DNA of 17,441 bases from Candidatus Parcubacteria bacterium (GTDB lineage: Bacteria > Patescibacteriota > Patescibacteriia > SG8-24). Numbering within the stretch: the stretch's first letter is position 1; every line of letters starts with the position of its first letter. The stretch is from contig JBEEJS010000048.1 of the NCBI GenBank assembly GCA_041169025.1, positions 1 through 17,441 of the forward strand. The letters run 5' to 3'. The notes under the pieces are model-generated. The model saw only the letters and a program-made list of their open reading frames with translations, was not told where the DNA came from and searched no databases. This document shows, piece by piece, positions 6,822 to 8,962 of the stretch. The position numbers and the translations under genes were made by a program.

Positions 6822-7676
6822 ATGTCCGACCTCGCCTCCTCACCGAAGCTCATTTTCAAGAACCGTGGCGATTCGACCGAGCGTCTGACGCTACGCCTCG
6901 CTGCGGCGGCCCGCAAGTGCATCGTGCGCTTCACCGGCGGCTGCGGCGAGATGTCCGAGGGCGACGGCGACCGGCTCAAGGAGCTGTTCAGTCCCGCCTT
7001 CGTCGGTTTCGAGGGCGCGCTCACCTTCGGCGGCACGCGCATGGTGTACCGCGCCGACTGGTCCCGCGTGCGACAGGGCATCACCGAGATCCCGCCGCAT
7101 CTCAAACAGACCGTCTGCCCCAACGCCGTGCTGCTCGGCATCGTCCCGCGCACCGCCGATATCGGCATCTGCGAGATCGGCGTCAAGATCGAAGACGACC
7201 CGAAGAACGATTTCTTCACCATCGTCCATCCCGATCAGGATCACGCGTTGGTCATCCAGATCAACGCGGACAACGCCTGTCCGAAGATCGACGACAAGGT
7301 GCGCATGTCCGCCGCCGGCACGCCGCTCCCCGCCCCGAACGTCTGGGACGCCGAGTTCGAGGAGTGCATGCGGATCACCGGCATCCTACGCGAGTGCTTC
7401 GACGGCTACGGTTCGGTCCTCATCGCCTACAACGGCGGAGGCACCACCGAACGGGAAATCGTCGCGACCTCCGACCGTGGCTGGCCCGTGATCCTCATCA
7501 AGGGCAGCGGACGCAAGACGGACGAGTACGCGTCGAACAAGGAGTTCCTGGCGCTGCGCGACAACGTGCGCGTCGTGGATAAGGATCCCTCCGCCATCCG
7601 GGCGGCCCTGGCGGAATTCGGCGCGGTGCCGGAACGCCGGATGTCCCTGGTGGGAAAGGGCAGCCGGAGCGCGTGA
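6822..7676 (+). CDS. LOG/SLOG-superfamily Rossmann-fold protein, paralog A (284 aa)
   Basis: GGAGA RBS 6 nt upstream of the ATG at 6822. LOG-like motifs in order: IVRFTGGCGE (cf. vcVfgGSs), ALTFGGTRMVY (cf. lvyGGgxxGlMg), PNAVLLGIVPRT (cf. aGGxviGiiP), AYNGGGTTEREI (cf. PGGfGTleEl) and WPVILIKGSGRKTDE. An insert of about 80 aa sits between the Gly-rich motifs. Clear paralog of the next gene. Confidence 0.6.
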   Translation: MSDLASSPKLIFKNRGDSTERLTLRLAAAARKCIVRFTGGCGEMSEGDGDRLKELFSPAFVGFEGALTFGGTRMVYRADWSRVRQGITEIPPHLKQTVCPNAVLLGIVPRTADIGICEIGVKIEDDPKNDFFTIVHPDQDHALVIQINADNACPKIDDKVRMSAAGTPLPAPNVWDAEFEECMRITGILRECFDGYGSVLIAYNGGGTTEREIVATSDRGWPVILIKGSGRKTDEYASNKEFLALRDNVRVVDKDPSAIRAALAEFGAVPERRMSLVGKGSRSA

Positions 7677-7754
7677 ACGCGCGATCCGGACTGACGCTTC
7701 GCTTACGACTATTCGGAAACGTGCCAACATCAGCCCAAAGGAGAACGATCGACA

Positions 7755-8549
7755 ATGACGACGACCCCATACACCGTGACCGCCCCGGAAAACCGCGTTG
7801 ACCTGCTCGTGCAGGACGCGTCGGCCCGGGACACCGCCGACCTGCCGCTCCGCCTCAAGGCGCTCGCGCTGCAAGCCGGATCGAGAGTGATCCTGCGCAT
7901 CGCCGGTGGCTGTTCCAACCAAGGGCCTCAGGACAAGAAAGACCTCGCTCGCGTCGTCGTGGAAGGCACGCTCGGTTTCACCGGCGTCGCATTCAGCGGC
8001 GGCACGCGCGACATCGCTGACGGCGCCGTGGACCCCATGGTCACGGAGCTGCCCGCGCTCATGGCGCAGCGCAACCCCGGTTGCGTCGCGCTCGGCACGG
8101 TGCCTCGTACCGGCATGCTCGGACTCGTCGGCGAATCGCGCCTCGAGCTCGACGCCGAGCACCACAACGTCAACCCTGCGATGTCGGCCGTCTGCATCGT
8201 GCAGGACGGCGCGAACCGCGACCTCGGCTGGGACGGCGACCTCGACATGTACTTCCGCTTCATGACGATGCTGCGGGAAGAGGAGGGTTTCACCCTCGGC
8301 CTCATCGCCTGGAACGGCGGCGGTGCCACCTACAAGGAGATCATGCAGGCCGGCAAACTCGGCCTGCCCGTGATCCTCATCAAGGGTTCGGCCCGCAAGA
8401 CCGACGAAGTCGTCGCCAAGCTCGAGGCAAACGACCCCGAACTGCTCTCGCAGCTCCCGGCGGATCACAAGCTGCGCATCGCGCACCGGGACGACCCGTC
8501 CAGCGTACGCGCGCTGATGATCGAGTTCGACCTGATCGAGAACGGCTGA
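7755..8549 (+). CDS. LOG/SLOG-superfamily Rossmann-fold protein, paralog B (264 aa)
   Basis: aaaggagaa RBS upstream of the ATG at 7755. Motifs RIAGGCSN, VAFSGGTR, PGCVALGTVPRT, AWNGGGATYKEI and LPVILIKGSARKTDE correspond one-for-one to those in paralog A. No terminator lies between A and B, so they are probably co-transcribed. Confidence 0.6.
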   Translation: MTTTPYTVTAPENRVDLLVQDASARDTADLPLRLKALALQAGSRVILRIAGGCSNQGPQDKKDLARVVVEGTLGFTGVAFSGGTRDIADGAVDPMVTELPALMAQRNPGCVALGTVPRTGMLGLVGESRLELDAEHHNVNPAMSAVCIVQDGANRDLGWDGDLDMYFRFMTMLREEEGFTLGLIAWNGGGATYKEIMQAGKLGLPVILIKGSARKTDEVVAKLEANDPELLSQLPADHKLRIAHRDDPSSVRALMIEFDLIENG

Positions 8550-8553
8550 CGTC

Positions 8554-8593
8554 ACGAAAGCCGACCGCTGCATGCGGTCGGCTTTTCCTTTTG
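8554..8593 (+). repeat. 40-bp exact direct repeat, copy 1; also a rho-independent terminator hairpin for the LOG/SLOG pair
   Basis: acgaaagccgaccgctgcatgcggtcggcttttccttttg is identical to 9023-9062. It has a 9-10-bp stem (agccgaccgc/gcggtcggct), loop tgcat, and a T-rich tail. Confidence 0.8.
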
Positions 8594-8612
8594 CACCATG
8601 TGTCTACCGTCA

Positions 8613-8641
8613 TTGACAAAACAGGGAGTCCGTGGTAACGT
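8613..8641 (+). promoter_or_regulatory. Candidate sigma70 promoter with extended -10 for the RHH gene
   Basis: aTTGACAa (8613-8618), a 17-bp spacer ending in TGg, and TAACGT (8636-8641), located about 25 nt upstream of the RBS and ATG at 8666. Confidence 0.45.
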
Positions 8642-8665
8642 CCCCGGCACGAAAGGAAACGCGCC

Positions 8666-8962
8666 ATGAGTAACGAATCGGAACGGAATGACAAGCCGAC
8701 GTTCATCAAGATGAAAAGCGAACTGCGGGCAAAGCTCCGGGACGCGATACTGCGGACGGGCGCGACGAGCGTCACCGAAGCGCTCCGACACGCGACCGGA
8801 CTGTACCTCGCCATCGCGAGCACGCTCCGCTTCGGCACGCTGCTCGACGTATCAAGGGTCCGCCTGGATACCACCGCGACATCGTTGTCCGTGATCATTC
8901 CGATCAGGCCCGGCACGCTCCACCTCGTCCCCAGGACGGAGGAGGTCGATCTCACGCGCTGA
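8666..8962 (+). CDS. Ribbon-helix-helix (CopG/Arc/MetJ-like) DNA-binding protein, 98 aa
   Basis: aaaggaaa RBS upstream of the ATG at 8666. The N-terminal segment PTFIKMKSELRAKLRDAILRTGATSVTEALRHATGLYL fits a beta-strand, helix, GxS/T, helix RHH pattern. The C-terminal 50 aa are unassigned. Confidence 0.5.
   Translation: MSNESERNDKPTFIKMKSELRAKLRDAILRTGATSVTEALRHATGLYLAIASTLRFGTLLDVSRVRLDTTATSLSVIIPIRPGTLHLVPRTEEVDLTR

Follow-up and report, generated by a model that had tools for sequence, protein, structure and literature searches.

A conserved tandem pair of stand-alone TRPM-like SLOG proteins in Patescibacteria and its proposed place in NAD salvage

The A–B gene pair

The window analysed here is a complete contig of 17,441 bp from Candidatus Parcubacteria bacterium (GCA_041169025.1, JBEEJS010000048.1; 64% G+C), and our subject is a pair of adjacent genes within it, called A and B below, that encode stand-alone proteins of the SLOG superfamily. 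Gene A (6822–7676, plus strand, 284 aa) begins with an ATG preceded by a GGAG Shine–Dalgarno sequence; a longer form starting from a GTG at 6732 is possible, and the starts of its orthologs favour ~6822. Gene B (7755–8549, plus strand, 264 aa) follows with an upstream AGGAG Shine–Dalgarno sequence. A consensus scan placed a promoter-like element (TTGACG-17-TATGTT, 6747–6775, plus strand) ~45 nt 5′ of gene A, which is a weak pattern match only (one seen versus 0.5 expected in shuffled sequence). Directly 3′ of B lies a strong intrinsic-terminator hairpin (8554–8593, plus strand; GCCGACCGC-TGCAT-GCGGTCGGC and then the T-tract TTTTCCTTTTG), beyond which is an open reading frame (ORF) for a 98-aa protein (8666–8962, plus strand) that an earlier note on this DNA had called a ribbon-helix-helix (RHH) regulator. 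All three ORFs look coding because, like the real genes of this contig, they are rich in G+C at codon position 3 (GC3; 0.89 for A, 0.88 for B and 0.82 for the 98-aa ORF).

A and B are true paralogs. The earlier note had described two adjacent paralogous genes of 284 and 264 aa, and the coordinates match; BLASTP aligned the two proteins over their whole length with 32% identity across 262 columns (E 5e-28), a similarity far beyond chance. Every sequence block that had been named as common to the two is present in both (RxxGGC, GGTR, PxxVxLGxVPRT, NGGGxTxxEI and PVILIKGSxRKTDE), the second taking the form FGGTR in A and FSGGTR in B. Read along the proteins, the signatures are RFTGGC, GGTR, PGITE, HP, WDAE, YNGGG-T-E and GSGR for gene A, and RxxGGC, SGGTR, PMVTD/E, NP, WDGD, WNGGG-T-E and GSxR for gene B. 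Gene A also carries an insertion of ~20 aa (C153–P172, 7278–7337, plus strand; CPKIDDKVRMSAAGTPLPAP) in the loop just before an invariant tryptophan. It was found in this genome alone, being absent from every other A ortholog of the alignment, and the AlphaFold model has lowered confidence there (predicted local distance difference test, pLDDT, ~72).

Fold and predicted ligand pocket

Pfam PF18171 (LSDAT_prok, "SLOG in TRPM, prokaryote") was the sole Pfam family matched by A and B, and it is also the label carried by most of their homologs. With a gathering threshold of 25.4 bits, B scored 25.8 and A 24.1, the match of A being partial (profile positions 108–167 of 195), so that the two are borderline members. 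Neither protein matched any NCBIfam model, and the LOG profiles (Pfam Lysine_decarbox, NCBIfam TIGR00730) did not detect them at E≤0.1. The AlphaFold model of A (pLDDT 92.6) was used in a Foldseek search, and the top matches were all TRPM channels. More distant SLOG relatives gave comparison figures of 15.7 for TM1055, 14 for YgdH, 13 for the molybdenum cofactor (Moco) carrier protein, 12.9 for CgLOG type II, ~11 for DprA, 10.2 for the SLOG domain of ThsA and 8.5 for YpsA. The model has the Rossmannoid three-layer alpha/beta fold that resembles LOG, DprA, YpsA and the TRPM N-terminus, and the pair displays the full bi-lobed architecture of TRPM MHR1/2. These models make A and B prokaryotic, stand-alone forms of the TRPM MHR1/2 (LSDAT) SLOG domain, complete with both lobes. 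The SLOG/LOG assignment made in the earlier note is therefore right, the fold not being an unrelated one, and can be sharpened to the TRPM type, although by profile the proteins are not members of the LOG family; the ~80-aa insert said to set the proteins apart from LOG enzymes does correspond to an extra ~70–80 residues, but these are in fact the portion common to TRPM.

Residues that are invariant or nearly so in both paralog families (numbered as in B) are R48, G51-G52-C53, G82, T84, R85, T97, P117, W159, N187-G188-G189, T192, E195, G213 and R214. In the model all of these pocket residues lie at strand C-termini or helix N-termini, forming a Rossmannoid ligand crest: the GGC loop follows the strand E45–51, and NGGGxT follows the strand E180–186 at the N-terminus of helix 190–201. 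Both glycine-rich loops are invariant in 68 sequences. The second, NGG[GPA][VI]TxxE, stands in register with the LOG motif PGGxGTxxE, with Asn in A and B at the first position where LOG has Pro, and its Thr and Glu are invariant. In LOG enzymes the glycine backbone and this Thr bind the 5′-phosphate, and the last Glu (Glu122, together with Arg99) has been proposed as catalytic (PMC4979012). This glutamate is kept in 68/68 A and B sequences, whereas TRPM2 has Thr at that position. The family profile also puts its own GSGR onto the GSGR of human TRPM2, so that the equivalent of R358 is conserved in 100% of B and 95% of A sequences; R358 binds the two phosphates of ADP-ribose (ADPR) in the MHR1/2 site of TRPM2 (PMC6759353). 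By hidden Markov model alignment, the invariant Trp falls two columns from human TRPM2 Y295, and human TRPM2 R302 aligns to a non-basic position in A and B. Judged from these alignments, the A/B family appears to combine TRPM architecture with a glutamate at the LOG-like catalytic position.

The structurally closest known relative is the TRPM MHR1/2 SLOG domain, above all the ADPR-sensing N-terminal site of TRPM2. Unlike that domain, A and B are soluble single-domain proteins rather than the N-terminus of a cation channel, they are bacterial and encoded by two paralogous genes, they share only 13–16% identity with it, and they retain the LOG-type Glu that TRPM2 lacks, together with an invariant first-loop Cys. 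Compared with LOG/TIGR00730 proteins (including PpnN/YgdH and TM1055), they are longer by those ~70–80 residues, they carry Asn for Pro, the catalytic Arg is not evident, and their relatives sit among NAD (nicotinamide adenine dinucleotide) genes and not among purine or cytokinin genes. The SLOG domain of Thoeris ThsA, a sensor of 3′cADPR, is much more distant, and A and B have no SIR2/TIR partner or PADLOC match and do not sit on mobile elements. Members of LSDAT_prok are associated, within conflict systems, with transmembrane (SLATT-type) partners or other effectors; A and B, in contrast, form a distinct clade of two orthogroups that lacks associated transmembrane or effector genes and has an NAD-salvage context.

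Conservation of the pair and its neighbourhoods

Homologs are few: a word-indexed search of 5.8 billion proteins recovered 33 for B and 73 for A, and when 1.84 billion representatives were searched exhaustively, 128 passed E≤1e-30 and 787 passed E≤1e-3. Seventy loci were fetched, tblastn covered 67 of them plus the window, and the pair was counted over 51 non-redundant loci. Pairing is obligate: at 43/51 loci an A-type gene is immediately followed, in the same orientation, by a B-type gene, and most of the eight loci that lack a complete pair are contig ends. At three Collierbacteria-type loci (L067, L063 and L018) only the C-terminal half of a B-like protein (residues ~139–260) was seen, with no A gene 5′ of it despite ample flank; decay or truncation of a former full copy may account for this fragment. 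Nearly all named loci come from bins of the candidate phyla radiation (CPR; Patescibacteria), where the distribution is lineage-wide; the named hosts are Uhrbacteria, Saccharibacteria, Absconditabacterales, Adlerbacteria, Collierbacteria and "Patescibacteria group". Other labels are one Aenigmatarchaeota bin and a few third-party Gammaproteobacteria or Pseudomonadales bins, one of which (L008) shares synteny with the Uhrbacteria loci.

A orthologs are 35–54% identical to A of the window versus 23–35% to B, and B orthologs show the mirror pattern. Because each ortholog is nearer to its own group than to the other paralog, the A/B duplication is ancient. Fixed signature residues distinguish the A group (G86, I87, H136, E178, C182 and Y203) from the B group (M95, V96, N140, D162, Y166 and W186). 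The gap between the two genes ranges from −4 to 111 nt, with overlapping stop and start codons in several pairs, and such tight spacing is typical of subunits that are made in a constant ratio. LOG enzymes are obligate dimers in which the active site is formed by the interface (PMC4979012), and by this analogy a heterodimer is the natural inference; since the two separate orthogroups keep identical invariant pocket residues, A and B would probably assemble as a hetero-oligomer with two competent sites. Among the 150 best representatives there were no A–B fusion proteins, and the only fusions were of GNAT with an A-type SLOG domain. These rare proteins of 640–800 aa (P0165, P0176, P0187, P0214 and P0230) consist of an N-terminal region, a GNAT-like acetyltransferase and the A-type SLOG domain. 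At L068 (7267–10187) a NUDIX gene directly precedes such a fusion and no B gene follows it, which provides a further link to ADPR and Nudix; stand-alone GNAT genes adjoin the pair in L019 and lie near it in L021. The earlier note had asked whether pair, RHH gene and effectors travel together: the pair is conserved, but tblastn found no counterpart of the putative RHH gene, and no conserved transmembrane or effector gene (TIR, SIR2, SLATT/TM or nuclease) was found beside the pair in ~50 loci.

NAD-salvage genes recur beside the pair in relatives. Counting NrtR, PncA, NadD-NadK, PncB, ADPR-type Nudix and NadE, at least one such gene lies within ~6 kb of the pair at 12 of the 30 dereplicated loci whose extra flank reaches 4 kb or more, and at least six different gene orders occur among these 12. 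As a rough estimate, for a ~1-Mb genome that has one or two NAD loci, a random stretch of 16–20 kb would catch an NAD locus only a few percent of the time. Clusters of the Uhrbacteria type (L006, L008 and L012) have the order NrtR, PncA, A, B, NadD(-NadK), PncB, AdpP/YffH-type Nudix, radical-SAM protein and glutamine-dependent NadE. L001 has a NadD-like nicotinamide mononucleotide (NMN) adenylyltransferase fused to NAD kinase, a 100-aa ORF, A, B, nicotinate phosphoribosyltransferase and NAD synthase; L032 has NrtR and then, after a gap, A, B, NadD-NadK, Nudix, PncB and NadE. Shorter arrangements are A, B, PncB, NadE (L009), A, B, NrtR, PncB (L014) and PncB, A, B (L069), partial versions of the cluster occur in L027, L024, L031 and L037, and NrtR lies 0.2–5 kb from the pair in L034, L036 and L048. 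The protein encoded directly 5′ of A in the L006-type clusters matches Pfam Isochorismatase (7.6e-13) and NCBIfam nicotinamidase (5.5e-21). A and B were themselves considered as the missing nicotinamidase, given their invariant Cys and the pncA slot of nrtR-pncA-pncB-nadD-nadE operons, and this candidate was rejected because a bona fide PncA sits in the same clusters.

Two further groups of genes were seen in these neighbourhoods. A radical-SAM protein is conserved between Nudix/PncB and NadE (L006 12403–13422, L008 10890–11900, L012 12631–13587 and L009 10172–11071). A recurring block beside the A–B and NAD genes (L001 195–5045, L032 1046–5718, L069 1–4989 and L014 13171–15915) comprises a PP2C phosphatase, a ~620-aa protein without family match, a ~345–405-aa protein and a ~265–335-aa protein. 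The last has a vWA-like DxSxS...T...D pattern (weak NCBIfam VWA match, 0.0013), the ~345-aa protein has isochorismatase-like motifs by eye, without profile support, and the block resembles a vWA/PP2C/kinase signalling triad; PDB sequence searches with the ~350-, ~270- and ~620-aa proteins gave nothing useful.

Candidate operators accompany several of these units, as palindromes of 20–23 bp with half-site yTCAAA or GTGTA. In L001 a 22-bp palindrome, TGGTCTCAAAG(C/A)GATTTGAG(A/G)C, occurs twice (7081 and 8878), ~50–70 nt 5′ of A and ~60 nt 5′ of PncB. Three related palindromes in L032 (5834, 7704 and 9222) lie 5′ of A, of NadD-NadK and of the Nudix gene, so that two genomes have a palindromic candidate operator common to A–B and NAD genes, and L024 has one related palindrome (1490) between B and NadD-NadK. 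A different palindrome, GTGTA...TACAC, lies just 5′ of nrtR in L006, L008 and L012, and a similar one is also found 5′ of pncA-A-B in L006 (L006 positions 5304 and 6060). A loose form of the palindrome pattern matched the fetched loci (733 kb) 20 times, compared with 2.25 times in shuffled sequence. NrtR operators are known as lineage-variable 21-bp palindromes, and the NrtR effector is ADPR (PMC2330246). These sites suggest that A–B belongs to the NrtR regulon in the genomes that carry them. The relatives of the pair thereby resemble the NrtR-controlled NAD operons of Rodionov et al. (2008; PMC2330246), being found in nrtR-pncA-...-nadD-pncB-nadE clusters with operator palindromes 5′ of several units; the published arrangements include nrtR-pncA-pncB-nadD-nadE, and the named regulon members include no SLOG gene. 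Searches of the open-access literature turned up no report of paired SLOG genes within NAD operons or from CPR genomes. The regulon member pair nrtX-nrtY, considered as a possible equivalent of A–B, probably encodes a macro-domain and a PpnK-like protein and not SLOG proteins. A and B make up an uncharacterised two-subunit clade of their own within a known domain superfamily, and its metabolic context is new.

In the window itself neither an operator palindrome nor an NAD gene was found, and the pair stands alone between unrelated genes. On the 5′ side are a 369-aa protein without family match (4697–5806, plus strand), which has its own terminator, and a divergent gene for a 274-aa probable lipoprotein; on the 3′ side is a convergent ABC-2 transporter (permease) gene. 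None of the neighbouring genes of the window recurs at related loci, and the loci without NAD genes have no common neighbourhood theme. A search for a riboswitch 5′ of A with Rfam at gathering thresholds, over the window and eight loci without NAD genes, returned only tRNAs and RNase P.

The 98-aa ORF is not part of the A–B unit; it is an orphan gene behind the B terminator. That terminator recurs as an exact 40-nt copy at 9023–9062 (plus strand; scored as a terminator, 13 pairs), and the two copies bracket a 469-nt unit containing the ORF, which has its own TTGACA-like −35 element at ~8614. The unit separates the A–B operon from the convergent ABC-2 gene and has the look of an insertion or duplication specific to this lineage. 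An RHH regulator as partner of the pair was rejected: the protein found only itself among the 5.8 billion proteins, tblastn gave no match at any of the related loci, Pfam RHH models did not match the full-length protein or its N-terminal 57 aa even at E≤10, and PDB sequences gave nothing meaningful. By eye only, its N-terminus (TFIKM, helix, G-x-S, helix) is compatible with RHH.

Elsewhere in the window, an 860-aa ORF (12230–14812, minus strand) encodes a full-length homolog of the Major Vault Protein (MVP; Pfam MVP_shoulder 8.5e-21, Vault_3 4.3e-13), colinear with rat MVP in a phmmer search (E 6e-15; 433–791 against 414–787 of 861 aa), an unusual gene to find on a Parcubacteria contig. Its neighbours are a GST-domain protein and ORFs without family match. 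The GST-domain ORF (10861–12273, minus strand) has such domains in its C-terminal 200 aa only and an atypical GC3 of 0.67, and its true start may be internal. GC3 is likewise atypical in the ORF at 14840–15868 (minus strand; 0.62), and the ORF at 15859–16899 (plus strand; 0.85) looks like a real gene, its antisense ORF not. In a 679-aa ORF (176–2215, minus strand) the family signal is limited to an Aldedh-like stretch of 50 residues.

Proposed function and alternatives

We propose that A–B is a two-gene operon whose products, two anciently diverged stand-alone SLOG domains, would act together as a hetero-oligomer. Each subunit keeps a full predicted nucleotide pocket, whose parts are the GGC loop that follows strand 1, the GGTR that follows strand 2, the Trp, the NGGGxTxxE loop-helix and the Arg of GSGR. 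The ligand would be a phosphoribosyl nucleotide derived from NAD, of the ADP-ribose or NMN/nicotinate mononucleotide (NaMN) class, and the pair would act within the NAD salvage and recycling regulon of CPR bacteria. LOG-like N-glycosidic hydrolysis would free the base (nicotinamide, nicotinate or adenine) from possible substrates such as NMN, for example that released by NAD-dependent ligase, or ADPR/NaMN-class compounds, and the products would feed PncA and PncB, the Preiss–Handler enzymes, and the ADPR-type Nudix encoded alongside. To our knowledge, an NMN-nucleosidase-type step has no firmly assigned bacterial gene. That A/B is a LOG-like N-glycosidase recycling an NAD-derived nucleotide is a tentative prediction, to which we give somewhat less than an even chance.

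Several observations weigh against this proposal. The closest structural relatives, TRPM MHR1/2 domains, are non-catalytic ligand sensors. Neither A nor B has a conserved residue that clearly matches, at its spacing, the catalytic Arg of LOG enzymes (Arg99 in CgLOG, placed 23 residues ahead of the Glu), and one of the other invariant arginines (R48, R85 or R214) might stand in for it. The NAD clusters that contain the pair already encode PncA, PncB, NadD, NadE and Nudix, so that no obligatory step is visibly missing. No NAD gene lies nearby in the window or in ~60% of the informative loci, several of the NAD-linked loci are syntenic relatives and so are not independent, and the spacing between the palindrome half-sites varies (3–5 nt), NrtR being their putative binder.

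The proteins could instead be non-catalytic binders of ADPR, NAD or a related nucleotide, serving as sensor, carrier or buffer in the manner of TRPM2 MHR1/2 or the Moco carrier protein and regulating or chaperoning, for example, NadD/NadK, NrtR or Nudix through protein–protein contacts. Against such a role, A and B lack an output or effector domain, no further gene is conserved as their partner, the LOG-position Glu that TRPM2 has lost is invariant in both paralogs along with the first-loop Cys and other polar residues, and two subunits with two intact pockets are more typical of an enzyme. We regard it as the main alternative, though one on the unlikely side. An ordinary duplicated nucleotide 5′-monophosphate nucleosidase of the LOG/PpnN type, acting on purines or pyrimidines or as a cytokinin-type phosphoribohydrolase, would fit the SLOG fold, the PGGxGTxxE-like motif and the retained Glu, and nucleotide salvage is important in CPR bacteria; given the differences from LOG proteins described above, we consider it improbable. 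The suggestion in the earlier note that the pair senses a nucleotide signal in conflict or defence, under control of the adjacent RHH gene, is largely refuted by context and has very little left to recommend it: neither A, B nor five other window proteins matched a PADLOC model, homologs were absent from 2.9 million viral contigs and 72,556 plasmids, no conserved effector accompanies the pair, its distribution in CPR is lineage-wide, and the 98-aa gene is an orphan outside the operon without an RHH profile match.

The proposal of a LOG-like N-glycosidase can be extended further. In its bolder form, the A/B heteromer would be an unrecognised enzyme of the CPR pyridine-nucleotide cycle, acting on NMN, NaMN or ADP-ribose, and its family would be the free-living prokaryotic sister of the ADPR-sensor domain of TRPM2; we think this combination rather unlikely. 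If it were true, the ADPR/Nudix partnership of TRPM2 (MHR1/2 with NUDT9-H) would have been inherited from a bacterial NAD-recycling module.

For annotation, the pair is a warning that a SLOG gene is not automatically a defence sensor. As small, soluble and, by prediction, well-folding bacterial homologs of the ADPR-binding MHR1/2 of TRPM2, A and B would be useful for studying ligand recognition and for tracing how the TRPM2 sensor arose and how it is linked to Nudix/ADPR chemistry. CPR/Patescibacteria have a minimal, salvage-dependent metabolism in which the maintenance of NAD is only partly understood, and the pair offers a concrete candidate, open to testing, for a step of recycling or regulation that is missing from their NAD salvage.

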